This document shows, piece after piece, positions 1,567 through 35,914 of a stretch of 50,980 nucleotides of DNA. Position numbers and translations under genes: made by a program. The notes beneath the pieces were generated by a model. The model was not told the DNA's origin, made no database searches, and was given only the letters and a program-made list of their open reading frames with translations. The DNA comes from Cyanophora paradoxa CCMP329 (Eukaryota; Plantae; Glaucophyta). The DNA is taken from assembly GCA_004431415.1 (NCBI GenBank), contig QPMI01000313.1:1-50980 (forward strand), in the 5' to 3' direction. Within the stretch, counting starts at the first letter, position 1; each line of letters opens with the position of its first letter.

Positions 1567-2074
1567 AGCTGAGCTTGGCGCGTTGTCTCCAACAATTAAA
1601 TCCGCGAATTCTTACGATTTACCGTAACAGCATCAAATCTAATCGAAAATCACCGTAAGGCTCAGTGTCACGATCGATTCATCTTCGATTCATCTTCGAT
1701 TCACTCGATTCATCTTCGATTCAATCGATTCAATTCAACTTTTTATGCGCGGCTTCTCCCACGATTCCGCACGATAGACAGTAAGGAGATCTATTGTACA
1801 ATCGATTCCGCAAGATAAGCGGCAATGTACAATAGATCTCGCACGATAAACAGTAACAATTCACCTTTTTTCGCGCGGTGTCTCCCACGATAACAACACG
1901 CTTCAATAAAAATAAATCTTACGTCGGGTTTCGCCCTTCCCCCGTCGTTTTCGGTGCAGCAAATGGTTGCGCAACCATTTTTTTTGGTTGCGCAACCACC
2001 GCAACCAGGTCGCGCAACCACCGCAACCAGGTCGCGCAACCATTTTTTTTGGTTGCGCAACCACCCCGCAACCA
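1567..2074 (+). repeat. Left terminal inverted repeat (508 bp)
   Basis: Reverse complement of 11902-12409; I found 4 substitutions by eye. Confidence 0.97.
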
Positions 2075-2221
2075 ACGCAACCACCCCGCAACCAACGCAA
2101 CCACCCCGCAACCCCCGCTAAACCGTTACAGTCGTGGGTTCATGACTAATGAACGCCGATTGTCTCTTTTTTATCGCTCTTCGTCTCATGAATTTCCTAA
2201 AACCTTTCACGTCATCTTCTG

Positions 2222-2874
2222 TTAAGATCGCGCGATCTGTGTAAGTCTTAATGTCATAACTTGCAAACTTGCGATTACAGTTTGGTAATTATGTCCCCAC
2301 AGGCGATGTAGTTCTTTGTAAGTTTTCTTATCCATTCCACCGTTGTATTCATCGTAAGCACAGTTAAACTCTTTTTCATTTCCTAAAATGTTAAAGAATA
2401 CCACGAATTCCACATTACGACGAATGGTAGTAGAAATAGAACAGATACGTTGGACATTAAAAATAACCGAAATCGAATAATGGCGTCCACTTGTAACCAA
2501 TTTAGATAACACAGCGTTATTATGCATGTCCAGAGTGGAACCTATCATGTCATCAAGAATCAAAACTAAATTGTGGCGTTTCTCGTTGTTCTCGATTCGT
2601 TTTTTTGCATGCTGATCAATCTTAAAACTAAATCATCATTCCATTCCTCGTAAATATTATCGGGATGGGTGATGTCTCTAAATTGACCAGTAAACGCAGT
2701 CGAACTAAAAACTACGATCTGATCGATTTTATCGCGTAGTTCGAAAAGTAAATATTTCGTGAACATTGTCTTACCAGTGTTCGAGCGTCCACAATTTAAG
2801 ATTCGCGTAGGTATTTTAATTGTTCTGTTCGGCTCGAATTCCGGTATATTGTTTAGGTCTACTGTGTTATCCAT
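2222..2874 (-). CDS. A32/FtsK-HerA-family DNA packaging ATPase (frameshifted at T7 run 2600-2606; C-terminus uncertain)
   Basis: Walker A GRSNTGKT, 'IVVFSST', Walker B (LVL)ILDD and A32 motif GRHYSISVIFNVQ. ORFs 2566-2874 and 2222-2563 join as MQKKRIENNEKRHNLVLILDD if one A is added. Confidence 0.92.
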
Positions 2875-2924
2875 TACAGTAATCCCATAAAAAAACGATT
2901 AAGCCAATAACCCACACCAATCGC

Positions 2925-4150
2925 TTAGAAGTTACTTACTTTAAGCGTAGAAATATTATAGCCGTTGAGAACGAGAACGTTGTGGCGAAGTGCGTAAATG
3001 TCAACAACAACAGGTGCAGCATCAGTGCAACCGGAAACTGTGAGATCCATGTAGGAACTCGAAGAATTGAAGAAATCTTGGTAACCCATGACAGAGTTGT
3101 GCAGGGAATCCTTACCGGACTTCGAAAGAACGATCCCGTAAACATTGCCGCCTTGGAATCCGAAGTTTACATTACCAACGGTAGTTCCCTTGTAATGCGA
3201 GGGGATGTGGTTCACAGCCGAAAGGAACCCACTAATCGGTCGGTTCGAGATGTCGAGAGAACGATTATTGTGGAAGATTTGGAACTGATCAATCTTAACA
3301 TTTCCTTCGTAGCCCTCGAAATCTGAATGCGTGTATTTGTTGAGTTTGTTAACTTCGCGCACCGTCATAAGAATGCTGTGAACGAGACCGGAAACATTCG
3401 CAAGCGAAACTTCGACAGATTCGCCCGCATCGGCGGTTTTCTGTGATCGAGTTCGCTTCTGAATCACTTCGGTAATCGGAATGCGAATTCCCCCCTGTTC
3501 GTTCGCCATTTTCAGTAGCGCTTCCGCCTCGGGGGAGGCGATGTTAACGAATTGACAGATCAGGGCGCAGTCGGTCATCGCCAAAGCTCCCCCAGAGGGA
3601 ACCTGAACTACCGCAGCTTCGCGGAAATCAACTTCAATCGTAGGCATATCGGCAAGAACGCAAAGTGGGAAATACGCATCATCCCAGAATTGCGCCGGAA
3701 TTTTAACAACATATTCCCAGGTCTTATCGGTGCTGTTTCGGTTGTTCTCTGAGTAGTAACCCAGCGAAACAAACATGCTCGCCATTGTGGCGTGGTCGTT
3801 ATCGACGAGCGCGTTTACAGTAATCCAATCGCCGGAATGATGTATTTGAACCCACCGTGAACGAAGCGGACTTCGGAAATAAACGACGAACCACCATTGG
3901 GCATTACGCATTGAACGGCGCCACCCGTTGTGACCTTAAAATTGAGACTAACGCCGCTAAGAAGTTGCTTACGCGGTAGATCAAAGTAAGCGGTTGTTTT
4001 GAATCCGAAAGTGTTACCACGAGGGCGGACTTGCTCTAAAAACGGTTTATACTTGGGATTGGTTCCGATTTGAAGACCAGGCGATAAATACACTTGATCC
4101 GAACCGGGAGTCACAAGTAGTTCTTTAAGAGTTGTTCCACTAAGCGCCAT
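2925..4150 (-). CDS. Major capsid protein, double jelly-roll (~408 aa; frameshifted near 3851-3853)
   Basis: The joined frame gives SEVRFVHGG-VQIHHSGDW (cf. the 'ELEIGGQRIDKHYGDW' pattern of DJR MCPs), YFPLCVL..IEVDFR and C-terminal DIYALRHNVLVLNG. Beta-rich, and located between the ATPase and the penton. Confidence 0.8.
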
Positions 4151-4202
4151 TTTCGCTGTTTACAATACAACAAGAAATTTTTAAATTACAATAATAAACA
4201 GA
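4151..4202. promoter_or_regulatory. Putative bidirectional promoter between the MCP and penton genes
   Basis: 52-bp AT-rich spacer between divergent ATGs; TAAACAG lies just upstream of both start codons on their respective strands. Confidence 0.5.
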
Positions 4203-5096
4203 ATGACGCGTTATTATATTAATATTGATTCGAGAGATCGCGAAAATGGAACACCTTCCGAATTTCTCTACAAACTTCCCCATGCAATTCAAAAGGTTAA
4301 AGCATGCAGAGTTACAAATTTCGAAATGTTTAACAATATTTACAACCTTGCAGAGGCAGGATCACTTACCACATCTACCAAAGATGCAGCAGGAAGCACA
4401 AAGAACAGACATAATATTATTGCAAAAGGTTCATACACAACAGACAGTTTAGTGAATTATCTAATTGCTAAGATTGGATCACAGAACTATTCCCAAAGTC
4501 CCAGTGGAACCTATACCAAACACTTCTATGTAACTTATGATCCTATCACAATGTTTTTGAGGTTCATTTGTGAATCTGAATTCAGCATCACTATGGGCAG
4601 TCAGATTCTTGCTAATTTTCTTGGGTTTAAAGATGCAAACAAAGTATACCCCTCAGCACTATTAGATGGGAGTGTTACCATTGGATCATACACATACACA
4701 CACTACATAGACAGTGAAATACCATTAGACCTTCTATTTAATTCCTACTTGCTTCTACACATTGCACAACTAAAAGGCAAGTATGTGAGCAATAACACCA
4801 AAGATAATAATGCTCTTGCTAAAATTGAGATTGACAAGACAGTTGGTAGTTTGCTAATATATGATTCTTCAAATAATGCAATGATCACCCATGAACAGAA
4901 TGGCTTGGTGGAACTTGAAGCAATGGATGTAAGACTTTCTTATTGGAATGGTAACACAGCAGACATCACAACTGATTGGAGTATGACATTAGAAGTTGTG
5001 ACTGAGGATGAGAAGGAACTAACCAAGAGATCACTTCAAAAGGTGATACAAGATTTCGAAGAGGCATTCATTCCATTTTGTAGGTCATATCTGTAA
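4203..5096 (+). CDS. Minor capsid protein (penton, single jelly-roll), 297 aa
   Basis: N-terminal YINIDSRDR...FLYKLP..IQKV and C-terminal LEAMDVRL...DWSMTLEV are typical of PLV/NCLDV pentons. Divergently transcribed from the MCP. Confidence 0.8.
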   Translation: MTRYYINIDSRDRENGTPSEFLYKLPHAIQKVKACRVTNFEMFNNIYNLAEAGSLTTSTKDAAGSTKNRHNIIAKGSYTTDSLVNYLIAKIGSQNYSQSPSGTYTKHFYVTYDPITMFLRFICESEFSITMGSQILANFLGFKDANKVYPSALLDGSVTIGSYTYTHYIDSEIPLDLLFNSYLLLHIAQLKGKYVSNNTKDNNALAKIEIDKTVGSLLIYDSSNNAMITHEQNGLVELEAMDVRLSYWNGNTADITTDWSMTLEVVTEDEKELTKRSLQKVIQDFEEAFIPFCRSYL

Positions 5097-5120
5097 AAAA
5101 TATATCTTTGCATATATCAA

Positions 5121-5879
5121 ATGTCAGGATCCAGGAAAACCCAACCCAAGAATTTCTTGTCGAAACCTGTTGCAGATGCCGATGGGATAACAGAGGGAAA
5201 GAAGGGAAGGAATTGGGACAAGAAACCCAAAGGAACAGCAGCACTTGGAACAGGTGATCTTGACAAGGACATCCACAAAATGATGAATCAGCACACAGCA
5301 ACACCAACTGATAATGCGAACGACGATAACGCTTTGATTGACCAAGTTCCACTGAATCGAATGCCTAAGAAGCGAAAGCATTTCAGAGAGAAGACCAAAG
5401 AGAAACTTTTACCATCCGCCACGCTTTTAAAGCTTCTTGATGGCGGCGAGCGACTTTATTCGACATACTCGGAGAAGGATAACCGCAATCGTTACTTTAT
5501 CCGCTTGAAAACGGGCGGTCTTAAATCGGTCAAATACCAGGACGCCAAAAAAATGGTTCAGGGGATTGCGAACGAGACCGCGTTAGAGAACAAGATTCTC
5601 GAACAGCAGATCACGAAAGAGAAGGTCGAAAAGAAACCGGATGTGACGTTCGACGTTCTTCCCGATCCAATCACAACCGCGAAGAATACGCCAATTGAAT
5701 TAATCGCTAAGACCATCGATTACGCGGAGAGTAACAAGACCGATTTACCGGTAATGAACAAGAGTTTACTTCGGGTCGCCACTTCGCAAGCCGACCCCAT
5801 TACATCGGTTCCCTCCGCCGCCCCCATGCTTTCGGGGTTCGCAAAACTTGGGATCCGCCCCGGTTACCGGAGGTTTTAA
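5121..5879 (+). CDS. Hypothetical Lys-rich protein, 252 aa
   Basis: Long ATG-initiated ORF 24 bp after the penton; NLS-like PKKRKH; no recognisable family. Confidence 0.7.
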   Translation: MSGSRKTQPKNFLSKPVADADGITEGKKGRNWDKKPKGTAALGTGDLDKDIHKMMNQHTATPTDNANDDNALIDQVPLNRMPKKRKHFREKTKEKLLPSATLLKLLDGGERLYSTYSEKDNRNRYFIRLKTGGLKSVKYQDAKKMVQGIANETALENKILEQQITKEKVEKKPDVTFDVLPDPITTAKNTPIELIAKTIDYAESNKTDLPVMNKSLLRVATSQADPITSVPSAAPMLSGFAKLGIRPGYRRF

Positions 5880-6235
5880 AACCGACCTTTGCGTAGCCCG
5901 ACGTTAATGATCATTTTGCCGTTAAAAAATTTCTTGTTCAAATGTAGCGCTACGTAAACAATCCATTCGCGTAGGCTCACGTTTACTCATTTTTATGGGT
6001 GGCGTTGTAGAAAGAAGTGATATCCATGTATATCGCGCTTTTATCACCTGTTCTACGGGGTTCATTCGTGGAAACTTGCGACCGACAAGTAGACAATCGG
6101 GGACACTTCGATTTATTTTCCGGCATCTTCTTTCAAAACGGTGCAAAAAAATGACGGCTTTTCAAGACAAGTATATACCAACAACAAAAAGGACTTAAAG
6201 ATTTCTTGTTATATATCAGAAGAGGACAAAGTACG

Positions 6236-6490
6236 ATGCCGATTAGCGAAGCACAGAAGCGCGCAATTTACCGTTACCGCAAGACCGAAAAGGGTCGTGA
6301 ATATCTTAAAAAGTACAGCAACAGACTGTCGAAACAAATGAAGGAATTATACGACACCGACGAGTGTTACCGAGCGATGAAGATAGTCGATAGTTCACAA
6401 CGCCAGTACGTCGCTAACGCCGTGTGTTACATTAAATACCTTTATGGGGTTCCGCACTCAAATCGGGGGCGCCCCTCGATCTACTTCTGA
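6236..6490 (+). CDS. Small basic hypothetical protein, 84 aa (MPISEAQKRAIYRYRK...), possible DNA-binding regulator
   Basis: ATG at 6236 downstream of an AT-rich motif that also precedes the polymerase gene; basic, probably helical N-terminus. Confidence 0.6.
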   Translation: MPISEAQKRAIYRYRKTEKGREYLKKYSNRLSKQMKELYDTDECYRAMKIVDSSQRQYVANAVCYIKYLYGVPHSNRGRPSIYF

Positions 6491-6725
6491 TCTTGTTTTT
6501 TCTCAGCGCGTTTGCCCTGAGAACCCAGCGCGAGCGCAACCGCGCTTAATCGTAATAAATCTTGTTTGTATTATTTTTAGAACCATTGTATGATGGTCGA
6601 CCCTTTGTTATTTTTCCTATTTGCTTGACCGATCGCTAAAATGCGCCGGTCAAAAAATGACGTCATAGAATAAAATCACTTAAAGAATAAATTTATTTGT
6701 ATAGAATAAGGAAAGCGCCAACAAA

Positions 6726-9700
6726 ATGCCTCGCGCAGTTAGTATCCAATCCGCTAAGAAGAGAGCGAGTATTCTTTCGAAGCTTGGTTATGCTCTTGGA
6801 AATGGGTTTATGAATGAAGAGCAATTTAACGCATTCGGTCACTTTGCCTTCGTCAGACGACCGAGACTAAGCGCACTGAACGACATCGAATACTCAATTG
6901 ATGATATCATTGCGAGAGGTGAGGCTCAGCAAAACACAGAAGACGAAATTAACCGCTTGGGTCGTATTGATGTTCCACAGGAGTTGGTGAATCAGCGACC
7001 AGAGAGAAACACAAAGACACACACGAATCCGTTCAATCGGATGAAAACCGATCTTGGCGAGTTCATTGCGAACTCGCCAGGCGACATGGTCACGCTGCAT
7101 GTTCGACTTTACAAAGAGGTCGCAGAGGACGAAATCGCGAATTTGCCCGCAAACGCTGTTGTGATTCAAGCGAACGGTTTGTATTACCGGGATCTGAAAA
7201 AGACCCGTAGTAATCAACCTCTTGCAATCCAATGTTCGAAAGAAGCGCTGCTTGCAAATCTCGAAAAAATAACGAACACATTCAATTCTTTCCCTGCTCT
7301 AACAACTGTCGAAGACATCCATCAATTCATGTTCGAAATCGTCCGCTTCAATCAGGAAAACCAGGACTTCCGATACTTGACGATTGTTCAAGAGGACATT
7401 TACGGTGAGATCATCACAATTGAACGAATCATCACCACCGACAACCAAACGTATACGCCGAGACAACAGCAAGCGCTACGCGATACGCAACATGCCCCGA
7501 TGATCATATCGAAGTATTTGCGCAATGAGACGAACCCAAAAGCCAAAACTTTGGGGGAACTGTTCATTAGGGGTGATAGATTTAAAGTGGGTCGGTGTGT
7601 TCCGGATGTGCTTGTGATGCATTTCGCACAGGCGTTTCAGAAAGCGCAAGCGAAAGGCAAGTATAAATCGGTCGATTGGACACACAGTGGAATATTTAAA
7701 ATGATTCGGGGTCGGGAACCCACAGAGGGGGACGATTGGGGCTTCACCTTTGAGGAAATCGTAGAAAAGGTTCTGACACCATACCGCATCGGAATGGTCA
7801 CGATCGATAAAGACGATAAGACCGAAATACCCGAACTCACTTTCAAACCGAAAACGAGAAATACACACCTCACGCCATCGGTTGCATACGTGAAAATCGA
7901 AAACGGTCACATGTATCTACTAAACGATAACCTGAAATCACTAACTCACTCTTTCAATGGGTCGAAGTCGAATTCTGACACGAATCTTTCGGTGGGTCGC
8001 GATTCAAGATTGTCAAGCAAAGAAAACATCGCGAATTTGCGGCAACTCCTGAGGATATCGTGAAAATCATCAATTCGGAGGAGATGAAGAACCAGAGCAA
8101 AATTTCGATCTGTTACAGTGGATACCTCGACGATCTTCTGAAAGAGTTCATTGTTGATGTGAATTACCAGGTGCATGCGGGGATTTCCCCAATGCGCAAG
8201 ATCACACACATTCATTTCACGTATGGTGAAAAGAGTATTACGATCACACCACCCGGTTCCGACACAGATGTGGAAACCGCTTACGAAGTGAAATTCAAAG
8301 ACGCAGAGTATCGTGATAAGTTCGAGCGGCTGAATCTGAAAATGTATCTGAGTCTCGTGAACAATGCAAACAAGAGTTCATACAACGATCAGACCATGAC
8401 AGCCTTCCGCCTTGGGTCACAGACCGCCCTTCGTGGGTTCTTCGACTTAGATACCGAAACCCGGGATGACCTCCATTGGAACGAAAACATTTACGAACAC
8501 GATGTGTGCAAGGCATACCCCGCAATCATCGCGAAACAGATCGAATTCGTTCCTGTCGTTAGTAAATTCGATTACTTCAAAAAGACGACTGTAACTTCCG
8601 CGGATCAGATCGAAAACTACAATTTCTATTACGTGAAGTTGCACTCGAAGTTTTTCAAACCAATGAAGAACCCCGACGGATCGACGTATTTTCTTAACAC
8701 GTATGATCGTCACAAGCGCATGCTAATTGATTCGGCTTACAATGTCATTCCGGGAATGGTTCTGAAAAAACACTACGATGCTCTGAAAGACGACATTACC
8801 ATAAAGGGAGTTCTCCGACCATTTAAGTTGGTTCCGAATTTCTCGGGCGATGTGATTCGGCAAATCATGCAAAGTGATCTTGACCCGAACGATAAAAAGC
8901 AAATGCTTGTCGCCAATATCGGACAGATTGGGAAACAGAAAAACCACAAAGTAAAGACCACGATCTTCAACAAGAGAGACGATGCGATCGAATTCCAAAA
9001 GCAATATGGCGGAGAAGTAAAGCTCTACGTGTTTGGTAAAGATCCAACATCGTATGACCCAACTTGTTACGTCATTAGCGAGGAAGAGATTACGGAACCG
9101 TGTATCTACTATGTGAATCAAGTAGCCGAAAGATATCTTACCGATGGGTTCATGCCGTTCCACAACCTGATGTATTCCCTAATGCGCATGAATCTATACG
9201 AGAAGTGCGTAGAACTCAGTGCAAAAGGGATTAATCCTGTTGCTGTGAATACCGATTGCGTCTACACTACCTCGTGCGACCCAATCCCCCTCGTTAGTTT
9301 CGACCGCCACGCCTACGAAAACATCGGGGGTTCAGTGTAAAGCATTGCCCCAATTTCATCAAGAAGTATATCGGCAAAGACAAGGTGCTAAACTTGCGGC
9401 GTATTCACTACGGCAAATTGGAGCGACAGGACGACTTCGTGAAATTAGAGAAGTTGAACTATTTCACTTTCTCAGCAGTTGATGAATTCGACACACCAGC
9501 GATTTGTCTAACTCTTGCGACTCAGAAAAGATGGATTATTCTTGGCGTTGTTCCCGGAGTGGGGAAAACTCACATGATGATGGAGTATTCGAAGCAATTC
9601 CAAAATCCACTTTTCATCGTTCCGACAAACAAGCGCATTCGAGACATGAAGTTGAAAGGCATAAAGAATGTCAAAACTATTTACGATGCGCTCCATCTCA

Positions 9701-10827
9701 AAGTTGACGATTCGAACATGGAAGAGATCGTAGGCGGGAACGCTTCCGGTTTGGCGGACTTTGATGGTATTTTCATTGACGAAATCTGTCAGTTCACAGT
9801 CCCCGAGTTGGGGGCGCTCGCCCACATTATGGGGGTTCTGTTCCCCGACAAGGTCTACGTGGCTACCGGCGACCCCTTTCAGAACCCACCGATACAGGAG
9901 ATGACCGTAAATCAGAAAGAGTATTACGCGTATATTCTTCGGCATCTTTTCGGAAACGAGTTAGTCCTGAAAGTTAACAAGCGCCACAAGACCCAGGAAG
10001 ATCGCGATACAGTCGAGTGTATACGCCGTGATCTTTTCGAAAACGGTTTGAGTGTTCCCGATGTAATTAATAAATACAAGTTTGAGACGGTGAACGCATT
10101 GGGAAAGGATGACCGCGCGATAGTTTACACCAACCGCAAAGCGGCGGAAGTAAATCTACAAATCCACAGGATGAATCACGGGGAAGATGTTCCTATTTAC
10201 GCGAAAGGCGTGGAAATTGTCGCGAAGCAAAGGATCGTGAAGAATGGCGTAACCATTCACAATGGGTTCAGCTACACGATTAAGGCGTTTAACGACACAG
10301 AATTCGTCATCGAGGACATCGCGACGAAGGAGGAAGTGAGGTTAGACCCGCCCGCAATGCGCTATTTCGCGCTCCCTTACGCTTACACTTGTCACGTCAT
10401 TCAGGGTGATACTATTGTGTGCAAGAATGGGAACGTCGTCATTTACGAAGCGGGCGCACCGTTTGTTTCGAGCGAATGGTTTTACACAGCGGTCACACGA
10501 ACTACTGAACTAAATCGGGTCAAAATTTACCATGATGGATTCGAGTGGGCAACACATGTCGTTGACAAGCGCAAGTTCAATGAGCGCATTGAACAGTATA
10601 AGGAACAGGATAAGAAGGCAAACCGACCATTTGACGAAAACGATTATGTGAATTGGGAGTGGTTCAAAAAACGCTACGGAAAACAATATGGTCATTGCCT
10701 TCGTTGCTATGGTGGTATGGATTTCGATCTTAATGTAATCTCGATCGATCGAGTGAATAACGCATTGCCCCATACAACCAAAAATTGTTTCCTGTCTCAT
10801 ATTAGGTGTAACTGTGCTGCTCAGTAA
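6726..10827 (+). CDS. Replication polyprotein: N-terminal/Cys-His protease-like region + protein-primed family B DNA polymerase + SF1 (RecD/Pif1-like) helicase + HNH-like Zn domain (~1367 aa after repairing two frameshifts)
   Basis: PolB-like motifs: A YEHDVCKAYP, B KQMLVANIGQIGK, C AVNTDCVY. SF1 motifs: GVVPGVGKT, VPTNK, IFIDE, GDPFQNPP, NKRH, YAYTCHVIQGDT, YTAVTR. C-terminal CLRC...SIDRVNN..H...NC...H..CN. Frames join at G runs 7994-7996 and 9326-9330. Confidence 0.85.
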
Positions 10828-12185
10828 TGGACAACGTTCTATCTTACAAGAAGTATCGACAGAAACTTATAAACGAAAATGTAACATTTGACGAAAAAGA
10901 ATTGAAAAAGCGATATTTAAATTCCGAAGTGCATCAGATTTTTAAGAAACCCCGAAAACCCACCACATTTTTAAGAATCGTCGCGAAACCGAATTCATTT
11001 CAGGTAGACATTATGTTTTTTAAAGGGTATCAGACAGCAAACAATGGTATTTACAAGATGATCAGTTTCGTTGACATTCTAAGTCGAAAGGCATTCGTGT
11101 ATCCTTTTAAGAACAACGAAGACATTCCGAATATTCTGAATAAATTCAAACAGGAAGCGGGTATGGTTGCTGCACTCTCAGGTGATAATGAATTCAGTAG
11201 CGCGATGTATAGAGATTGGTGTAATGCGAATGGTGTGAGGTTGTATACAGATGTCGCGAAAGAAGAACACATAACCGTAGGAAATAAACTTGGAATCATA
11301 GATAGATTTAAGCGCACTTTTAAACAGTATCTACGCAAGTCGATGACTTCGAAAGGGACAACGAAATGGATAGATATGGTTCCCGAAGTTCTATCGATTT
11401 ATAACAATAGCCCCCATAGTTCCTTAAAGAATGATTCGCCGAACGCCGTGTATGCAAACGTAGATAAACAACTTTTTGTGTATCTACGGGATACTGTTCA
11501 CAACGACAACGTGAAGGCGAATGAAACGAATCCCGTGAAACCGGGCGACACAGTGCGTGTTTTGGAGGGTCGCGTGGGTGCCTTCGACAAAGAGGGCGCC
11601 CGTTTTAGTCAAAAGGTCTACAAAGTGGGAAGGTCGGATGGGAACCGGTTCAAGATTTTAGAAGATAACGACGGAGACGAGAAGGAAGTAAAGCGGCGCT
11701 TTAAGAAGCAAGAATTACAGAAGGTGAATAAGGAAGAGATCATAAAGATCCCGTCGCAAAAGCGCATTGAACGCGTAAAGAAAACGAATAAGGTGAATCG
11801 GTTGGTCGCGAAGGAGGGCGTCAGACCCAATCGAAGTAGGGTCGTGAGGCGTCGGTACAATCTGAGGAGCGGCGTAACGAAGCGGGGGGATCATAAAAAA
11901 ATGGTTGCGGGGTGGTTGCGCAACCAAAAAAAATGGTTGCGCGACCTGGTTGCGGTGGTTGCGCGACCTGGTTGCGGTGGTTGCGCAACCAAAAAAAATG
12001 GTTGCGCAACCATTTGCTGCACCGAAAACGACGGGGGAAGGGCGAAACCCGACGTAAGATTTATTTTTATTGAAGCGTGTTGTTATCGTGGGAGACACCG
12101 CACGAAAAAAGGTGAATTGTTACTGTTTATCGTGCGAGATCTATTGTACATTGCCGCTTATCTTGCGGAATCGATTGTACAATAG
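10827..12185 (+). CDS. Retroviral-like (rve) integrase of Polinton type; true stop probably TAA at 11894-11896
   Basis: FQVDIMF, VDILSRKAFVYP, SGDNEF, GIIDRFKRTFK, YNNSPHSSL..SP and SH3-like PGDTVRV...FDK. Consistent with the 6-bp TSD. Confidence 0.92.
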   Translation: MDNVLSYKKYRQKLINENVTFDEKELKKRYLNSEVHQIFKKPRKPTTFLRIVAKPNSFQVDIMFFKGYQTANNGIYKMISFVDILSRKAFVYPFKNNEDIPNILNKFKQEAGMVAALSGDNEFSSAMYRDWCNANGVRLYTDVAKEEHITVGNKLGIIDRFKRTFKQYLRKSMTSKGTTKWIDMVPEVLSIYNNSPHSSLKNDSPNAVYANVDKQLFVYLRDTVHNDNVKANETNPVKPGDTVRVLEGRVGAFDKEGARFSQKVYKVGRSDGNRFKILEDNDGDEKEVKRRFKKQELQKVNKEEIIKIPSQKRIERVKKTNKVNRLVAKEGVRPNRSRVVRRRYNLRSGVTKRGDHKKMVAGWLRNQKKWLRDLVAVVARPGCGGCATKKNGCATICCTENDGGRAKPDVRFIFIEACCYRGRHRTKKGELLLFIVRDLLYIAAYLAESIVQ

Positions 12186-12409
12186 ATCTCCTTACTGTCT
12201 ATCGTGCGGAATCGTGGGAGAAGCCGCGCATAAAAAGTTGAATTGAATCGATTGAATCGAAGATGAATCGAGTGAATCGAAGATGAATCGAAGATGAATC
12301 GATCGTGACATTGAGCCTTACGGTGATTTTCGATTAGATTCGATGCTGTTACGGTAAATCGTAAGAATTCGCGGATTTAATTGTTGGAGACACCGCGCCA
12401 AGCTCAGCT
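11902..12409 (-). repeat. Right terminal inverted repeat (508 bp)
   Basis: Reverse complement of 1567-2074, followed directly by the TSD CCCACC. Confidence 0.97.
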
Positions 12410-15400
12410 CCCACCCACCCGCAAGTCACTCAGTCAAAGGCCCCAGGTTTCCAATCTGCCAGAAAAAAGAAGAAAGATGCACCCCAAATCTCTCTGGGGG
12501 AATATGCACAAGGCGCTAGCCTAAGGCAGATGACCCACCCACCAGCAAGTCACTCAGTCAAAGGCCCCAGGTTTCCAATCTGCCAGAAAAAAGAAGAAAG
12601 ATGCACCCCAAATCTCTCTGGGGAATATGCACAAGGCGCTAGCCTTAGGCAGATGACCCACCCACCCACAAGTCACTAAATCAAAAGCCCCAGGTTTCCA
12701 ATCTGCCAGAAAAAAGAAGAAAGATGCACCCCAAATCTCTCTGGGGGAATATGCACAAGGCGCTAGCCTTAGGCAGATGACCCACCCACCGCAAGTCACT
12801 CAGTCAAAGGCCCCAGGTTTCCAATCTGCCAGAAAAAAGAAGAAACATGCACCCCAAATCTCTCTGGGGGAATATGCCCAAGGCGCTAGCCTTAGGCAGA
12901 TGACCCACCCACCAGCAAGTCACTCAGTCAAAGGCCCCAGGTTTCCAATCTGCCAGAAAAAAGAAGAAAGACCCCAAATCTCTCTGGGGGAATATGCACA
13001 AGGTGCTAGCCTTAGGAAGATGACCCACCTAAAAGCAAGTCACTCAGTCAAAGGCCCCAGGTTTCCAATCTGCCAGAAAAAAGAAGAAGGATGCACCCCA
13101 AATCTCTCTGGGGAAATATGCCCAAGGCACTAGCCTTAGGATGATGACCCACCCACCAGCAAGTCACTCAGTCGAAGGCCCCAGGTTCAGGATCTGTGAC
13201 AAAATCAAAGAAAGATGCACCCCAAATCTCTCTGGGGGAATATGCACAAGGCGCTAGCCTTAGGCAGATGACCCACCCACCCGCAAGTCACTCAGTCAAA
13301 GGCCCCAGGTTTCCAATCTGCCAGAAAAAAGAAGAAAGATGCACCCCAAATCTCTCTGGGGGAATATGCACAAGGCGCTAGCCTTAGGCAGATGACCCAC
13401 CCACCAGCAAGTCACTCAGTCAAAGGCCCCAGGTTTCCAATCTGCCAGAAAAAAGAAGAAAGATGCACCCCAAATCTCTCTGGGGGAATATGCACAAGGC
13501 GCTAGCCTTAGGCAGATGACCCACCCACCAGCAAGTCACTCAGTCAAAGGCCCCAGGTTTCCAATCTGCCAGAAAAAAGAAGAAAGATGCCCCCCAAATC
13601 TCTCTGGGGGAATATGCACAAGGTGCTAGCCTTAGGCAGATGACCCACCCACCCACAAGTCACTAATTCAAAAGCCCCAGGTTTCCAATCTGCCAGAAAA
13701 AAGAAGAAAGATGCACCCCAAATCTCTCTGGGGGAATATGCACAAGGCGCTAGCCTTAGGCAGATGACCCACCCACCCGCAAGTCACTCAGTCAAAGGCC
13801 CCAGGTTTCCAATCTGCCAGAAAAAAGAAGAAACATGCACCCCAAATCTCTCTGGGGAATATGCCCAAGGCGCTAGCCTTAGGCAGATGACCCACCCACC
13901 AGCAAGTCACTCAGTCAAAGGCCCCAGGTTTCCAATCTGCCAGAAAAAAGAAGAAAGATGCACCCCAAATCTCTCTGGGGGAATATGCACAAGGCGCTAG
14001 CCTTAGGCAGATGACCCACCCACCAGCAAGTCACTCAGTCAAAGGCCCCAGGTTTCCAATCTGCCAGAAAAAAGAAGAAAGATGCACCCCAAATCTCTCT
14101 GTGGGAATATGCCCAAGGCGCTAGCCTTAGGCAGATGACCCACCCACCAGCAAGTCACTCAGTCAAAGGCCCCAGGTTTCCAGAAGAAGAAGAGTATGTA
14201 TAAGACAGGCCCAAGCCGGTTGTGCAAGGTTTCCAATCTGCCAGAAAAAAGAAGAAAGATGCACCCCAAATCTCTCTGGGGGAATATGCACAAGGCGCTA
14301 GCCTTAGGCAGATGACCCACCCACCAGCAAGTCACTCAGTCGAAGGCCCCAGGTTCAGGATCTGTGACAAAATCAAAGAGAGATGCACCCCAAATCTCTC
14401 TGGGGGAATATGCACAAGGTGCTAGCCTTAGGCAGATGACCCACCTAAAAGCAAGTCACTCAGTCAAAGGCCCCAGGTTTCCAATCTGCCAGAAAATAGA
14501 AGAAAGATGCACCCCAAATCTCTCTGGGGGAATATGCACAAGGCGCTAGCCTTAGGCAGATGACCCACCCAAATCTCTCTGGGGGAATATGCACAAGGCG
14601 CTAGCCTTAGGCAGATGACCCACCCACCAGCAAGTCACTCAGTCAAAGGCCCCAGGTTTCCAATCTGCCAGAAAAAAGAAGAAAGATGCACCCCAAATCT
14701 CTCTGTGGGAATATGCCCAAGGCGCTAGCCTTAGACAGATGACCCACCCACCAGCAAGTCACTCAGTCAAAGGCCCCAGGTTTCCAGAAGAAGAAGAGTA
14801 TGTATAAGACAGGCCCAAGCCGGTTGTGCAAGGTTTCCAATCTGCCAGAAAAAAGAAGAAAGATGCACCCCAAATCTCTCTGGGGGAATATGCACAAGGC
14901 GCTAGCCTTAGGCAGATGACCCACCCACCAGCAAGTCACTCAGTCGAAGGCCCCAGGTTCAGGATCTGTGACAAAATCAAAGAGAGATGCACCCCAAATC
15001 TCTCTGGGGGAATATGCACAAGGTGCTAGCCTTAGGCAGATGACCCACCTAAAAGCAAGTCACTCAGTCAAAGGCCCCAGGTTTCCAATCTGCCAGAAAA
15101 AAGAAGAAAGATGCACCCCAAATCTCTCTGGGGAAATATGCACAAGGCGCTAGCCTTAGGCAGATGACCCACCCAAATCTCTCTGGGGGAATATGCACAA
15201 GGCGCTAGCCTTAGGCAGATGACCCACCCACCCGCAAGTCACTCAGTCAAAGGCCCCAGGTTTCCAATCTGCCAGAAAAAAGAAGAAAGATGCACCCCAA
15301 ATCTCTCTGGGGGAATATGCCCAAGGCGCTAGCCTTAGGAAGATGACCCACCCACCAGCAAGTCACTCAGTCGAAGGCCCCAGGTTCAGGATCTGTGACA

Positions 15401-18400
15401 AAATCAAAGAAAGATGCACCCCAAATCTCTCTGGGGGAATATGCACAAGGCGCTAGCCTTAGGCAGATGACCCACCCACCCGCAAGTCACTCAGTCAAAG
15501 GCCCCAGGTTTCCAATCTGCCAGAAAAAAGAAGAAAGATGCACCCCAAATCTCTCTGGGGAATATGCACAAGGCGCTAGCCTTAGGCAGATGACCCACCC
15601 ACCAGCAAGTCACTCAGTCAAAGGCCCCAGGTTTCCAATCTGCCAGAAAAAGAAGAAAGATGCCCCCAAATCTCTCTGGGGGAATATGCACAAGGTGCTA
15701 GCCTTAGGCAGATGACCCACCCACCAGCAAGTCACTCAGTCAAAAGCCCCAGGTTTCCAATCTGCCAGAAAAAAGAAGAAAGATGCACCCCAAATCTCTC
15801 TGGGGGAATATGCACAAGTCACTAGCCTTAGGCAGATGACCCACCCACCCGCAAGTCACTCAGTCAAAGGCCCCAGGTTTCCAATCTGCCAGAAAAAAGA
15901 AGAAAGATGCACCCCAAATCTCTCTGGGGGAATATGCCCAGGGCACTAGCCTTCGGAAGATGACCCACCCACCAGCAAGTCACTCAATCGAAGGCCCCAG
16001 GTTCAGGATCTGTGACAAAATCAAAGAAAGATGCACCCCAAATCTCTCTGGGGGAATATGCACAAGGCGCTAGCCTTAGGCAGATGACCCACCCACCGCA
16101 AGTCACTCAGTCAAAGGCCCCAGGTTTCCAATCTGCCAGAAAAAAGAAGAAAGATGCACCCCAAATCTCTCTGGGGGAATATGCACAAGGCGCTAGCCTT
16201 AGGCAGATGACCCACCCACCAGCAAGTCACTCAGTCAAAGGCCCCAGGTTTCCAATCTGCCAGAAAAAAGAAGAAAGATGCACCCCAAATCTCTCTGGGG
16301 GAATATGCACAAGGTGCTAGCCTTAGGCAGATGACCCACCCACCCACAAGTCACTAATTCAAAAGCCCCAGGTTTCCAATCTGCCAGAAAAAAGAAGAAA
16401 GATGCACCCCAAATCTCTCTGGGGGAATATGCACAAGGCGCTAGCCTTAGGCAGATGACCCACCCACCCGCAAGTCACTCAGTCAAAGGCCCCAGGTTTC
16501 CAATCTGCCAGAAAAAAGAAGAAACATGCACCCCAAATCTCTCTGTGGGAATATGCACAAGGCGCTAGCCTTAGGCAGATGACCCACCCACCCGCAAGTC
16601 ACTCAGTCAAAGGCCCCAGGTTTCCAATCTGCCAGAAAAAAGAAGAAAGATGCACCCCAAATCTCTCTGGGGGAATATGCACAAGGCACTAGACTTAGGC
16701 AGATGACCCTCCCAAATGCAAGTCACTCAGTCCAACGCCCCAGGTTTCCGATCTGCCACAAAAAGAAGAAAGATGCACCCCAAATCTCTCTGGGGGAATA
16801 TGCACAAGGCGCTAGCCTTAGGCAGATGACCCATCCACCAGCAAGTCACTCAGTCAAAGGTCCCAGGTTTCCAATCTGCCAGAAAAAAGAAGAAAGATGC
16901 ACCCCAAATCTCTCTGGGGGAATATGCACAAGGCGCTAGCCTTAGGCAGATGACCCACCCATGTATGGGGGCTTGCCCCTCAGTTGGTGTGTTGGGTGGA
17001 AATACAGTGTGGTGTCCAGGAACTTGTCCTGGTACATCAGCGTGTGAACCCATAGTGTACTACGGGACAAGATGTACCCCAAATCCCTCTGGGGGGATAT
17101 GCACAAGGCGCTAGCCTTAGGCAGATGACCCACCCACCAGCAAGTCACTCAGTCGAGGGCCCCAGGTTTCCGATCTGCCAGAAAAAAGAAGAAAGATGCA
17201 CCCCAAATCTCTCTGGGGGAATATGCACAAGGCGCTAGCCTTAGGCAGATGACCCACCCACCAGCAAGTCACTCAGTCAAAGGCCCCAGGTTTCCAATCT
17301 GCCAGAAAAAAGAAGAAAGATGCCCCCAAATCTCTCTGGGGGAATATGCACAAGGCGCTAGCCTTAGGAAGATGACCCACCCACCCACAAGTCACTAATT
17401 CAAAAGCCCCAGGTTTCCAATCTGCCAGAAAAAAGAAGAAAGATGCACCCCAAATCTCTCTGGGGAATATGCACAAGGCGCTAGCCTTAGGCAGATGACC
17501 CACCCACCACTAAGTCACTCAGTCGAAGGCCCCAGGATAAGGATCTGTGACAAAATAGAAGCAAGATGCACCCCTAACCCTAACCAAAATCTCTCTGGGG
17601 GAATATGCACAAGGCGCTAGCCTTAGGCAGATGACCCACCCATGTATGGGGCTTGCCCCTCAGTTGGTGTGTGGGTGGAAATACAGTGTGGTGTCCAGGA
17701 ACTTGTCCTGGTACATCAGCGTGTGAACCCATAGTGTACTACGGACAAGATGTACCCCAAATCCCTCTGGGGGGATATGCACAAGGCGCTAGCCTTAGGC
17801 AGATGACCCACCCACCAGCAAGTCACTCAGTCAAAGGCCCCAGGTTTCCGATCTGCAACAAAAAGAAGAAAGATGCACCCCAAATCTCTCTGGGGAATAT
17901 GCACAAGGCGCTAGCCTTAGGTAAATGACCCTCCAAAAGCAAGTCACTCAGTCGAAGGCCCCAGGTTTCCGATCTGCAACAAAAAAGAAGAAAGATGCAC
18001 CCCAAATCCCTCTGGGGAATATGCACAGGGCGCTAGCCTTAGGCAGATGACCCTCCCACCAGCAAGTCACTCAGTCGAAGGCCCCAGGTTTCCAATCTGC
18101 CAGAAACTAGAAAAAGGATGCACTTCATATCCCTCTGGAGGAATATGCACAAGGCGCTAGCCTTAGGCAGATGAACCCACCCACCAGGAAGTCACTCAGT
18201 CGAGGGCCCCAGGTTTCCGATCTGCTTGAGAAAAGAAGAAAGATGCACCCCAAATCTCTCTGGGGGAACATGCACAAGGCGCTAGCCTTAGGCAGATGAC
18301 CCACCCACCACCAAGTCACTCAGTCGAAGGCCCCAGGATAAGGATTTGTGACAAAATACAAGCAAGTTGCACCCCTAACCCTAACCCAAAATCTCTCTGG

Positions 18401-21400
18401 GGGAATAAGTTCAAGGCGCTAGCCTTAGGCAGATGACCCACCAACCTGCAAGTCACTCAGTCGAAGGCCCCAGGTTTCCGATCTACCACAAAATCGAAGA
18501 AAGATGCACCCCAAATCCCTCTGGGGGAGTATGCACAAGGCGCTAGCCTTAGGAAGATGACCCACCTAAAAGCAAGTCACTCAGTTGAAGGCCCCAGATG
18601 TCCAATCTGCCAGAAAGAAGAAGAAAGATGCACCCCAAATCTTTCTGGGGGAATATGCACAAGGCGCTAGCTTTAGGCAAATGACCCACCCACCAGCAAG
18701 TCACTCAGTCGAAGGCCCCATATTTCCAATCTGCCAGAAAGAAGAAAAAAGATGCACCCCAAATCTCTCTGGGGGACTATGCACAAGGCGCTTGCTTTAG
18801 GAAGATGACCCAGCCACCTGCAAGTCACTCATTCGAAGGCCCCAGATTTCCAATCTGCCAGAAGAAAGCAGAAAGATGCACCCCAAATCTCTCTGGGGGA
18901 ATATGCACAAGGCGCTAGCCTTAGGAAGATGATCCACCCACCAGCAAGTCACTAATTCGAAGGCCCCAGGTTTCCAATCTGCCAGAAGAAAGAAGAAAGA
19001 TGTTTCCCAAATCTCTCTGGGGGAATATGCACAAGGCGCTAGCCTTAGGCAGATGACCCACCCACCAGCAAGTCACTCAGTCAAAGGCCCCAGGTTTCCA
19101 ATCTGCCAGAAAAAAGAAGAAAGATGCCCCCCAAATCTCTCTGGGGGAATATGCACAAGGCGCTAGCCTTAGGAAGATGACCCACCCACCCACAAGTCAC
19201 TAATTCAAAAGCCCCAGGTTTCCAATCTGCCAGAAAAAAGAAGAAAGATGCACCCCAAATCTCTCTGGGGGAATATGCACAAGGCGCTAGCCTTAGGCAG
19301 ATGACCCACCCACCACTAAGTCACTCAGTCGAAGGCCCCAGGATAAGGATCTGTGACAAAATAGAAGCAAGATGCACCCCTAACCCTAACCCAAAATCTC
19401 TCTGGGGGAATATGCACAAGGCGCTAGCCTTAGGCAGATGACCCACCCATGTATGGGGGCTTGCCCCTCAGTTGGTGTGTTGGGTGGAAATACAGTGTGG
19501 TGTCCAGGAACTTGTCCTGGTACATCAGCGTGTGAACCCATAGTGTACTACGGGACAAGATGTACCCCAAATCCCTCTGGGGGGATATGCACAAGGCGCT
19601 AGCCTTAGGCAGATGACCCACCCACCAGCAAGTCACTCAGTCAAAGGCCCCAGGTTTCCGATCTGCAACAAAAAAGAAGAAAGATGCACCCCAAATCTCT
19701 CTGGGGGAATATGCACAAGGCGCTAGCCTTAGGTAGATGACCCTCCCAAAAGCAAGTCACTCAGTCGAAGGCCCCAGGTTTCCGATCTGCAACAAAAAAG
19801 AAGAAAGATGCACCCCAAATCCCTCTGGGGGAATATGCACAGGGCGCTAGCCTTAGGCAGATGACCCTCCCACCAGCAAGTCACTCAGTCGAAGGCCCCA
19901 GGTTTCCAATCTGCCAGAAACTAGAAAAAGGATGCACTTCATATCCCTCTGGAGGAATATGCACAAGGCGCTAGCCTTAGGCAGATGAACCCACCCACCA
20001 GGAAGTCACTCAGTCGAGGGCCCCAGGTTTCCGATCTGCTTGAGAAAAGAAGAAAGATGCACCCCAAATCTCTCTGGGGGAACATGCACAAGGCGCTAGC
20101 CTTAGGCAGATGACCCACCCACCACCAAGTCACTCAGTCGAAGGCCCCAGGATAAGGATTTGTGACAAAATACAAGCAAGTTGCACCCCTAACCCTAACC
20201 CAAAATCTCTCTGGGGAATAAGTTCAAGGCGCTAGCCTTAGGCAGATGACCCACCAACCTGCAAGTCACTCAGTCGAAGGCCCCAGGTTTCCGATCTACC
20301 ACAAAATCGAAGAAAGATGCACCCCAAATCCCTCTGGGGAGTATGCACAAGGCGCTAGCCTTAGGAAGATGACCCACCTAAAAGCAAGTCACTCAGTTGA
20401 AGGCCCCAGATGTCCAATCTGCCAGAAAGAAGAAGAAAGATGCACCCCAAATCTTTCTGGGGAATATGCACAAGGCGCTAGCTTTAGGCAAATGACCCAC
20501 CCACCAGCAAGTCACTCAGTCGAAGGCCCCATATTTCCAATCTGCCAGAAAGAAGAAAAAGATGCACCCCAAATCTCTCTGGGGGACTATGCACAAGGCG
20601 CTTGCTTTAGGAAGATGACCCAGCCACCTGCAAGTCACTCATTCGAAGGCCCCAGATTTCCAATCTGCCAGAAGAAAGCAGAAAGATGCACCCCAAATCT
20701 CTCTGGGGGAATATGCACAAGGCGCTAGCCTTAGGAAGATGATCCACCCACCAGCAAGTCACTAATTCGAAGGCCCCAGGTTTCCAATCTGCCAGAAGAA
20801 AGAAGAAAGATGTTTCCCAAATCTCTCTGGGGGAATATGCACAAGGCGCTAGCCTTAGGAAGATGACCCACCCACCCACAAGTCACTAATTCAAAAGCCC
20901 CAGGTTTCCAATCTGCCAGAAAAAAGAAGAAAGATGCACCCCAAATCTCTCTGGGGGAATATGCACAAGGCGCTAGCCTTAGGAAGATGATCCACCCACC
21001 AGCAAGTCACTAATTCGAAGGCCCCAGGTTTCCAATCTGCCAGAAGAAAGAAGAAAGATGTTTCCCAAATCTCTCTGGGGGAATATGCACAAGGCGCTAG
21101 CCTTAGGCAGATGACCCTCCCAAAAGCAAGACACTCAGTCAAAGGCCCCAGGTTTCCGATCTGCCACAAAATAGAAGAAAGATGCACCCCAAATCTCTTT
21201 GGGGGAATATGCACAAGGCGCTTGCCTTACACAGATGACCCACCCACCAGCAAGTCACTCAGTCATAGGCCCCAGGTTTCCAATCTGCCAGAAAATAGAA
21301 AAAGGATGCACTTCAAATCTCTTTGGAGGAATATGCACAAGGCGCTAGCGTTAGGCAGATGACCCACCCACCAGCAAGTCACTCAATCGAAGGCCCCATA

Positions 21401-22129
21401 TTTCCAATCTGCCAGAAAGAAGAAAAATGCACCCCAAATCTCTCTGGGGGAATATGCACAAGGCGCTAGCCTTAGGCAGATGACCCAGCCACCTGCAAGT
21501 CACTCATTCGAAGGCCCCATATTTCCAATCTGCCAGAAAGAAGAAGAAAGATGCACCCCAAATCTCTCTGGGGGACTATGCACAAGGCGCTTGCTTTAGG
21601 AAGATGACCCAGCCACCTGCAAGTCACTCATTCGAAGGCCCCAGATTTCCAATCTGCCAGAAGAAAGAAGAAAGATGCACCCCAAATCTCTCTGGGGGAA
21701 TATGCACAAGGCGCTAGCCTTAGGAAGATGACCCAGCCACCTGCAAGTCACTCATTCGAAGGCCCCAGATTTCCAATCTGCCAGAAGAAAGAAGAAAGAT
21801 GTTTCCCAAATCTCTCTGGGGGAATATGCACAAGGCGCTAGCCTTAGGAAGATTACCCACCCACCAGCAAGTCACTCAGTCAGAGGCCCCAGGTTTCTGA
21901 TCTGTGACAAAAAAAAGCAAGATGCACCCCGAATCTCTCTGGGGGAAGATGCACAAGGCGCTAGCCTTAGGAAGATGACCCACCCACCAGCAAGTCACTC
22001 AGTTGAATGCAGTAGGTTTTTGATCCGCCACAAAATAGAAGAAGGATACACCCCAAATCTCTCTGGGGGAATATGCACAAGGTGCTAGCCTTAGGCAGAT
22101 GACCCACCCACCAGCAAGTCACCAGCAAG
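12410..22129 (+). repeat. 124-bp satellite array (middle block) with higher-order repeats and small insertions
   Basis: Same monomer as the left block; divergence rises toward 22 kb. Confidence 0.98.
14183..14226 (-). mobile_element. 44-bp insertion with 9-bp TSD (second copy at 14787-14830); possible 5'-truncated non-LTR retroelement end
   Basis: AGGTTTCCA is duplicated at 14174-14182 and 14227-14235; on the minus strand the insert ends in TTC repeats. Confidence 0.55.

Positions 22130-23000: not shown

Positions 23001-23076
<76 letters not shown>
23001..23076. repeat. (TG)34(CG)4 microsatellite
   Basis: Directly visible in the sequence. Confidence 0.97.
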
Positions 23077-23233
23077 AAAAAAGAGTGCGTGTGCACCCAA
23101 TTTGGACTCAATTTGGGAGGCCCGTTGCAGAATTGGTTTTTGAACTGAGCACCTTGGAAAAAAACTGGATATGCTCGGAATTCACGACCCTCTACACATG
23201 CTCTGAGATTGTTGATTAGACATCCTACCAACC

Positions 23234-24442
23234 ATGAAAGCAATAAAATGGAAAGCATGTTTGATTGTCCTATTTACCAGCACATTTCTCTTCTTCCGAC
23301 TGACATGTGTCAAAGTGAAACAGCAACAAATTTTGGATTTCGCCACAATTTCTGGAAGTGCAGAAGAAGTTTCAGCTGCTTGGGAAGTCCTCGTGACGGA
23401 CGATCTAACGAGACACCAGCAAATCAATCACGCATGCCCAAAGTTTCTGTATCAGCCTCTCGCCGAAGGAGCTGGAATAGGACATCGCCTGGGTCAGTGG
23501 ATGACTGCTCTTACTGCAGCGCGTGCATTGAACCTCACTTTTGTTCATCAGTCCCTGGATTCCGAAAGGGGTGCGTTGCTTACTGCGTTTCATCTGTGCT
23601 GTGAATAACACTTCGAAGATGGTGTGCACGGAGTTTACCGGCAATGGGACGAGTTCTTGAACCTAGGTTCTGGCGAACTTAAAGTTCGAGATATCCAGCC
23701 CATGCAGGTCTCGCGAACTAGACTTCCAAAAGTTCCTAACATTGAAAACACAGCCGCAATGTGGAATCAACTAAAATCCCATGTTTCGGACCAACGTCTC
23801 TGCAATGTCGTTTATGAGCTGCCTGTACGTTCGGTTTTTCCGTAAATTCTTTTGCACTCGTGTTTTACAAATGCGCAGGAAATGTGGTCGTATGATTACG
23901 GGCTTGACATTAAAAAGATAACAAGCTCGAAGTTTCAGCGTAGTGAGATGCGGAAACGTCAGTTTCCCCTTTCTTGGTCCAATGAAAGGAATAAGCTCCA
24001 CGTAGCTATCCATGTCCGGATGGGCGACATTGTTCCAACACCCGAGGAGTTTTTCCTGGGGGTAATACATGCAATCATTTCCGTTTTAGGAAGGCAAAAT
24101 GTGCATTTCTGGATTTTTTCAGAAGGGGACATACATCATAAGTATCCCAACATGGTTTCCATGCTGACGAATTTCACTGTACTGAACAAACTTTCAGCAA
24201 TGAGTGCATTTGTTCATCTCACCGAAGCAGACATACTGATTATATCTCAAAGTGGATTTTCTGAGTTTGCATCATTCTTATCAACGAAGCCATTGGTTTT
24301 CTCCCCTCCTTCTCGAGAGAGCTTCCCGTACAGATTTTGCCACGACCCTGCAATCTGTTGTACCATTTCTGGTGACTGCAGATTTGAAGGCTTCCAGCGC
24401 TTGGCTGTTCTTAAACTTCTTTTTCATGGCAAACATCAATGA
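23234..24442 (+). CDS. Spliced fucosyltransferase-superfamily (GT11/GT23-like) glycosyltransferase, ~368 aa; exons 23234-23570, 23619-23824, 23879-24442
   Basis: N-terminal signal-anchor, GAGIGHRL, VAIHVRMGD (motif I), WIFSE, and HLTEADILIISQSGFS (motif III). Two GT..AG introns of 48 and 54 bp join the three ORF pieces in frame. Confidence 0.75.
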
Positions 24443-24726
24443 GCATGTTGCCCAAGACTGAACTCACTCGGCGTAATATCTCGCTCTGGCTCAATCAGGG
24501 ATGTATGCTAAGATATCTGATCGTGATCGTGATTTCGAATATACTGCCGGCCGCACATTCTAGTTGACTACAATTGAATGCCTGCTTAGCGATCAGGGGG
24601 CTGCAAACGAGGCTAAGGTCTATGTCCAGACCGACAGCTAGGCTCTGTCATTCGGAATGGGACCCCCACCGAGTGTTTGGGAACTTCAATGTATCCTGGG
24701 TACACTCCCTTTCCACCCTGGTGAGT

Positions 24727-24933
24727 TTGAATTCCTGTCGGGCCCACAACAGGAAGTCAGGTGCACACAAATACTTTCCAGGGGGAACACGCACAAGGCG
24801 CTAGCCTTCGGCAGGTGCACCCAGGAAACATTCAAGTCCCAGGGGGACGAAGTCCCAAGCGCCTTGTGCATGTTCCCCCTGGAAAGTTTTTGAGTGCACC
24901 TGACTTCCTGTTGTGGGCCCGACAGGAATTCAA
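24727..24933. repeat. Inverted repeat (~76-bp arms, ~55-bp spacer) of satellite-related sequence
   Basis: TTGAATTCCTGTCGGGCCCACAACAGGAAGTCAGGTGCAC...GCACAAGGCGCT pairs with its reverse complement at 24858-24933. Confidence 0.85.
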
Positions 24934-26689
24934 TTGAAACTGACGACGGCCGAGAAGGAGTGAACCCAGGAATGATAGCCCCCAGCTGCTAGGATGTGTG
25001 GGGTGATGGGGGAAGTTAATCTTGGGTTCTGATAATTAAAACCAAAGTCTACCACTGCATAAGCCCTTGCGCTTGCAGTTAGTAGCATCGGAGTGAACAA
25101 ATCAAACCGATCATATCTCATATGCCAAAAGAACTCTAGCAATTGCTACAAATTCAAATCACAGAGCCGTGGCCTGGAATAGGCTCGGTCACAGGCTCAT
25201 CAGGACGGACTCTATTGTAGAAATAGAACCCGAAGTCGAAAATATTCTTGAGGAAGAGGATTTAAGAACGATGGCTGCCGCCCAGAAGATCGACATCATT
25301 TCCCGTCTTAACACGAGCAGTCAAAATCAGTATGATGGCACTAGCCCTTCGTTCACATATGACAATTTTCTAGCTGAAGTGAATTTTAATTTTAGCATGG
25401 AACTTCCATGGACCAACAACGATAAATTTCAGATCATACAGGCTATTACTACTGGAGCGGTCAAACTATTTGTTGATGGGAAGAAGCCTAATGGGGCGAT
25501 CCCTGATGGCTTTATTGCATCTCTGTTGAATGATATTAAAATGCAATTCGATTTCAGTGAAACGGACTACCGGAAGGAAATCGAAAATTTGAATCCTCGT
25601 AATCCACTAACCAATGAGTTTGATCTCCGAGTATTTTTGTCTCGAGTGGCCTTGATTGCTCCGAAAGCGTAGGCAAATGAATTTGCACACACCGAGACAA
25701 ATGGCTAGGGATATGACTGCATTGTCCATCTGTGTCAAGTCGAGAGATGAGCCTACGGGAACAAGCCTCTCGGACATCGGACGGGGTGGAGCTATTGTAC
25801 TGGAGAAAGGGGCCTATACCTGCCTAGAAACACTGCCTACACCTGCCTACAGAGCCGAAGCAGAGCAGAGCTACTATAACCCCCCTCAGGACAAGGGTGC
25901 CTACAAAGAGGACCGATGTATAAGCGAGGATGAGGTCGAAGCGGCTGAGCCTGAACTATTGTCCTCAATTTGGCAGGGAAGAAGCGCACTAAGAGAGCAA
26001 AGCCGACTAACCGCAGGGAGGGCCGGAAACCGGAGCCCGTGAGAGCCCAGGTGAAAACCGAAGGGCGCACAGCATCGCCGGCCGCAGCCGGGAACCTGTG
26101 CTCCTCGGCCAAGAGATACCTCCTCCAGCTGGCGCGTGCACGCACGCGGAGTCCGCTGCGGCGGGGGTTGGGAGGCCCCGGGCCGCCCGAGTGCTCAGAA
26201 GCACGTCGCCTCGCCAGGAATCCAAACATCTGTGCGGCCGCGACGCCCACAGCCACGACGCGGGCGTGCACTCACACGACCAACGATCATCTGCGTGGAC
26301 GCAGCGCAGGTTGCCGGCTCCATAGCCGTGGGCAGCCGATCGCTGCCGCAGAGAAGTGCTTGGGCTGAACCAGAGAGCAGCTGCTGAAGCCGCTGCTGGT
26401 GTCCGCCGGAGTAGCTCGCCGAACCGACCCTGACAGGCTCCCGCCTGCAGGCTCTCTCTCTCGTTTCCCCCCCCCCAGTCGGGGTAAGGAGCTAATCTTG
26501 TATGCACGGGTGAACAATAAGAAGACAAAATCTAGCGCTGCCAACAGATTGGTAGCATCCTCAGCACGGCAAAAGGTGGCCGCAGCAACGTTGTGGCAGC
26601 GTAGAGGCAGGAGGTTAGAAAGAAGAGACACAGAACCGGAATCTGAAAGCGAAGGGAGTCCAATTATATCTATCTCCAGTGGAGGCGAC

Positions 26690-27476: not shown

Positions 27477-27503
27477 CATTCCAAAGGGATTGTACACTCC
27501 TTT

Positions 27504-35906: not shown

Positions 35907-35914
35907 GTATATTC

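Follow-up and report, generated by a model that had tools for sequence, protein, structure and literature searches.

A compact Polinton-like provirus in satellite DNA of Cyanophora paradoxa, with frame breaks that are very probably consensus errors

We found that the window, the whole 50,980-nt stretch of DNA analysed here, carries a Polinton-like provirus (1567–12409) that has terminal repeats and is flanked by a target duplication. Its genes are interrupted by six frame breaks, which are very probably consensus errors left in multi-copy DNA. The predominant alleles in the organism are intact, as short-read contigs prove, and this particular copy is probably intact too.

The window is eukaryotic repeat DNA, in which a 124-nt satellite array (plus strand; 1–1566 on the left flank, continuing at 12410–22122) is interrupted by the 10,843-nt element. 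The element is bounded by terminal inverted repeats of 508 nt each (1567–2074 and 11902–12409), whose left and right arms differ by 4 substitutions and no indels. The arms start with AG and finish with CT, as Polinton termini do. A 6-nt target-site duplication (1561–1566, within a satellite monomer, and 12410–12415) is perfect on both sides. Terminal repeats, target duplication and an integrase, the latter assigned from an rve match below cut-off, place the element among Polinton-like viruses (PLVs) in the broad sense. Integration was likely recent, and the CpG excess of the element fits such an arrival (observed/expected 1.4–1.5, versus 0.21 in the satellite). The 4 differing sites among the 508 of the arms count against the reading of a young element with error-made breaks. 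The stretch 4267–5166 holds 3 CpG per 900 nt, versus 13–31 per 300 nt elsewhere in the element, and this CpG-poor module was possibly acquired from a long-resident copy. Contigs have loose ends beside it, at 4195 and 4231, a sign that related elements may carry the CpG-poor gene in a different form.

The gene set of the element begins with an A32-like packaging ATPase (2118–2874, minus strand); in the window, breaks near 2260 and at 2600–2606 divide it into pieces of 89, 113 and 46 codons. Pfam Pox_A32 matched two colinear pieces (profile 3–66 and 93–163), one above the cut-off (32.5 bits) and the other weakly, which identifies the protein as A32-like. The major capsid protein (2925–4150, minus strand) is broken at 3834–3835; its pieces cover one profile end to end (columns 12–122 and 123–448), and the profile matched A1 at 99.4%. 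The predicted model of its homologue P0004 matched PBCV-1 Vp54 (E 1e-16), which identifies a double jelly-roll fold. In the nearest Atlas cluster 18% of members carried Capsid_NCLDV, and the window's own capsid piece folded poorly as a single sequence (pLDDT 33). Among 1.84 billion representatives, four capsid relatives were recovered at E ≤ 0.001 (P0001–P0004, one of them from Cyanophora paradoxa), with 25–30% identity and colinear over the whole length. A word-based search returned no homologue of the capsid piece. Five query pieces found no related locus in viral contigs, and neither the capsid piece nor the terminal-repeat motif found one in metagenome contigs; of 10 window proteins, 0 had an exact counterpart in the protein collection.

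The other genes lie on the plus strand. An intact 297-codon ORF at 4203–5096 gave no match in Pfam, PHROGs, PDB or phages; from its position and an N-terminal motif, we take its product to be the minor capsid protein (penton), and this assignment is likely. Two unnamed ORFs follow, one intact with 252 codons (5121–5879) and one small and basic with 84 codons (6236–6490), neither with a family match. The putative replicase (6726–10827), a PolB-like/SF1 helicase/HNH-like fusion, is broken in the window at 7994–7996 and 9326–9330 into pieces of 422, 443 and 498 codons. The clusters nearest to the middle piece in the Atlas were DNA_pol_B_2, a lead with a score of 0.95 and 32% of the top cluster, and the last piece matched a Dda-like helicase (E 6.5e-14). 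A PolB-like domain is joined to a C-terminal SF1 helicase as in the Tlr1-like replicase, the fusion resting on contigs without both breaks. Motif C of the polymerase departs from the canonical form, and the tail is presumably HNH-like, judged by its motif. An rve-type integrase (10827–11896; Pfam rve, E 0.006, below cut-off) closes the set, and its frame in the window runs into the terminal repeat from 11884–11889. A protease family was matched by no ORF of the element, although a very divergent protease could escape among the two unnamed ORFs.

Twenty sequencing runs of one organism contain at least 79% of the words sampled from the element, and the Logan short-read contigs of four of them (X1, X7, X14 and X15) were compared with the window; such contigs drop minority alleles. 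A one-base length difference from the window appeared at seven sites, of which six are coding. Eight indel sites were seen in the contigs, two of which were minority variants and six of which were one-base differences common to all four runs: near 2260 and at 2600–2606, 3834–3835, 6116–6119 (non-coding), 7994–7996 and 9326–9330. At these six sites the length difference stood at full depth in 23 of 24 combinations of site and run, the remaining one being X7 at the ATPase run 2600–2606 (130/175). The evidence at the integrase site, 11884–11889, was indirect: the longest X1, X7 and X14 pieces halt at 11889 in a compared stretch that reaches 11895, and a contig of X15 ends loosely there.

The original prediction had counted five breaks, all by loss of a base from a homopolymer. 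The five runs exist, and the split frames overlap at them; each overlap zone holds 3–6 runs of at least 3 bases, however, so that the sequence alone cannot choose the break site. In the contigs the window's breaks were absent in the predicted sense at 2600–2606, 7994–7996 and 9326–9330, and indirectly so at 11884–11889. No length difference was found at 3851–3853 in the contigs of the four runs, and this placement of the capsid break was rejected, since contigs and homologue profile both put the switch at 3834–3835, about 18 nt away. In the four-relative capsid profile the upstream piece runs to column 122–124 and the downstream piece starts from 123, which places the switch at 3834 independently of reads. 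The count of five fell short of the six coding sites, with the break near 2260 and the non-coding difference at 6116–6119 both missed, and two of the sites are not runs worth the name. Near 2260, in the 3' part of the ATPase, the difference is a single base in the window. Past it another frame is open for 46 codons to 2118, adjoining the terminal repeat, and copy differences there are synonymous in 2 of 3 cases in this alternative frame versus 1 of 3 in the window's frame, where one would be a stop. This break shortens the ATPase of the window.

Substitutions between copies showed purifying selection on the element's genes. We classified the best 40 of 233 substitution sites by support, excluding 2 non-coding sites and 3 beyond the ATPase break and classing singly two sites that share one codon; 29 of 35 coding substitutions were synonymous, versus 21% expected. 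Many substitution sites vary between runs, unlike the six length-difference sites. The length differences also occurred in contigs that carry the window's nearby alleles (X7 at 2739–2782; X1 and X14 at 3750 and 3959). Over 7404–11889, the four longest X14 pieces matched the window through 4,109 bases with 0 substitutions, although they showed 2 gaps and broke off at 11889. Six frameshifts are unlikely to have accumulated in a copy so poor in neutral changes.

Could this one copy nevertheless have truly decayed by one-base deletions after insertion, with intact sister copies dominating the contigs? Depth over the element exceeded that over the host gene by 2.7, 4.1 and 3.4 times, a rough ratio that is not itself a copy number and that implies roughly 3–4 copies. 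The window's copy is therefore a minority and, as contigs drop minority alleles, is not proven intact; contig alleles are pooled over copies, with no read tying this insertion's junction to the break sites. Such decay would accommodate this, the one X7 combination below full depth, and a control stretch without such losses. Against it stand the three losses versus at most 2 substitutions in the right 4.5 kb, private substitutions that are mostly synonymous (6 of the 9 separating the window from all four runs; P 0.004), CpG that is not lost outside one gene, and a satellite with the same one-way loss. We consider decay of this copy improbable. Programmed frameshift or slippage sites of the virus are scarcely credible and close to refuted: several sites do lie in G or T runs, but the breaks are already missing from the contigs of DNA runs, one of the sites is outside coding sequence and another is a single base, and homologues run straight through the capsid break, all four being single open proteins. 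Consensus error, which the original prediction had favoured over decay, is well supported by the contigs, the synonymous copy differences and the satellite. The virus is likely intact as a family, and this copy probably so, short of proof.

The control stretch (23075–30605, 7.5 kb, same runs) consists mostly of multi-copy retrotransposon together with a host gene. Among 12 of 14 indel sites listed there, no one-base loss was common to all runs, whereas the rate seen in the element predicts about 5 (P 0.005), and the host gene matched exactly over 1,542 nt. The assembly is thus not error-prone everywhere; the errors are located in the virus and the satellite. In the far array (41000–50980), comparison of 81 monomers within the assembly sequence gave 181 losses of one base (18 per kb) and 23 substitutions (2.3 per kb), with 0 gains. 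This highly homogeneous array, with no clear higher-order period, is probably an unpolished collapsed array. The predicted shortening of the satellite thus held strongly there and mildly in the arrays flanking the virus, where 10 of 69 monomers had a shortened G5. The location of the errors is explained by polishing that fails on multi-copy DNA, though the multi-copy retrotransposon in the control escaped. Passages of PMC10120064 describe failed polishing of multi-copy DNA and split genes of protist PLVs that vanished on resequencing, and in the part seen of PMC8547959 Sanger sequencing confirmed no split virophage gene in EMALEs; the frame-break artefact is already known for such viruses.

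Other copies may have left traces in the contigs. Over 5300–7070, depth is higher by roughly a third to a half, probably owing to an additional partial copy, and a 50-nt deletion variant (6511–6562) occurs in all four runs. X15 contigs pass from the element into satellite-like sequence at 8739 and 11356, which hints at truncated copies in the same satellite or at chimeric RNA. Elsewhere in the window, an expressed host gene between satellite arrays (23075–24616; glycosyltransferase family 11-like by a weak Pfam match, introns of 48 and 54 nt) was exact in three DNA runs, and a word-based search returned no homologue of its exon. A rearranged Ty3/Gypsy nest occupies 26431–38619; it includes tandem duplications of 1,410 nt and an inversion, and two of its Pol frames are long and open. 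Of the best 120 relatives listed for the Pol, no full-length one exceeded 37% identity. Contigs of three runs join the right end back to 26431, and a short repeat at 25595–26600 is very high-copy, with X15 depth up to 48,000.

Transcripts of the provirus are spliced. X15 was taken as RNA from GT..AG joints in the virus and the host gene, none of the twenty runs being registered as RNA. Five GT..AG joints of 56–64 nt, all on the plus strand, were found in X15 and were absent from the three DNA runs; a random joint of such size would be GT..AG in 0.4% of cases. They lie at 2241–2302, antisense to the ATPase; at 3665–3720, antisense to the capsid gene and at low depth (4.7); at 4296–4353 and 4429–4484 in the putative penton ORF; and at 10341–10404 in the helicase part. 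Host introns in X15 measure 48, 54 and 60 nt, and 2 other long skips, X15-only or shared, were not GT..AG. The three joints within sense frames each singly truncate their frame. In the penton region either intron alone truncates the 297-codon frame (to 63 or 93 codons), whereas with both removed 259 codons stay open; in the helicase part, splicing takes out a conserved-looking motif as well as truncating the frame. These data show nuclear transcription and host splicing of the provirus in one run, in contigs that carry no strand, level or spliced fraction of the joints.

Most simply, the joints would come from read-through RNA in which splice sites occur by chance, the genes never having been under selection to avoid them. 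A bolder and rather doubtful reading is that a provirus intact in its DNA is disabled in its RNA: host splicing of a read-through transcript from the plus strand, antisense to capsid and ATPase, would use cryptic short introns and so disrupt the minor capsid and helicase frames, a latch that would hold until the spliceosome-free transcription of a helper. A silencing role for host splicing is speculation. Viral genes are assumed intronless in passages of PMC9356565; transposon-made introns are described in dinoflagellate proviruses (PMC12166617, in part) and group I introns in some PLVs (PMC12220804, in part). We found no report of cryptic host splicing of PLV transcripts in the literature searched, a partial coverage of main texts without supplements.

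We propose that the 6-nt duplication arose when a linear genome entered the satellite through the action of the rve integrase. With about 3–4 near-identical copies, short reads could not have been placed on any one of them, and the long-read losses would have remained. Since the element has no protease and no evidently complete polymerase, and since the host splices its coding sequence, productive expression would most likely need a helper. Replication and late expression would then depend on a hypothetical helper, for example a giant virus transcribing outside the nucleus. Helper dependence of Gezel and of reactivated Tetraselmis PLVs is described in passages of 10.64898/2026.06.19.733378, a precedent for that proposed here. 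Intact frames are necessary for reactivation yet are no demonstration of it, and the competence of this copy is putative.

These results again indicate that a pseudogenised look in a long-read assembly can hide an intact endogenous DNA virus, and that such errors gather in multi-copy DNA while neighbouring single-copy genes are exact. They also add a very compact Polinton-like virus whose capsid has almost no sampled relatives. The many public runs of the organism open its copies and transcripts to study with existing data, and the spliced transcripts offer a testable reason for the silence of intact copies, the lead most worth following.

Among known systems, the element differs from Mavericks/Polintons (Polintoviricetes group 1): no capsid maturation cysteine protease was found, and its PolB-like domain forms the central part of a fusion with a helicase rather than a stand-alone protein-primed PolB. 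EMALEs of Cafeteria burkhardae, as described in part of PMC8547959, are likewise endogenous capsid-coding elements with target duplications whose split genes are assembly errors; they are mavirus-like virophages, however, and nothing links the element's capsid to them. The account seen in PMC5499653 includes PLVs with a pDNAP-SF1 helicase fusion and a C-terminal HNH domain. Like the element, these have a capsid, an ATPase, an altered polymerase motif C and no protease, and their protein of 1,000–1,400 residues, with PolB motifs, C-terminal SF1 helicase and HNH-like tail, compares with pieces of about 1,360 codons here; in contrast to them, the element has an rve integrase and a 6-nt duplication, not a tyrosine recombinase. 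Tlr1 of Tetrahymena, compared by its description in the same account, shares MCP, minor capsid protein (putative here), ATPase, rve integrase, SF1 helicase fusion, terminal inverted repeats and the lack of a protease, whereas it has a GIY-YIG tail and the element an HNH-like tail and the standard code. We found no report of PLVs in protist satellites in the literature searched, a partial coverage that excluded supplements. Passages of PMC12220804 report 6-nt duplications with rve integrases and PLVs in Cyanophora, and part of PMC8502044 reports related elements there. At 10.8 kb and seven genes, versus 14–40 kb for PLVs in the parts seen of PMC12220804 and PMC10120064, the element, likened to them by gene content and not by a tree, may be an unusually small addition to a known kind of PLV, one that could already figure in a supplementary table.
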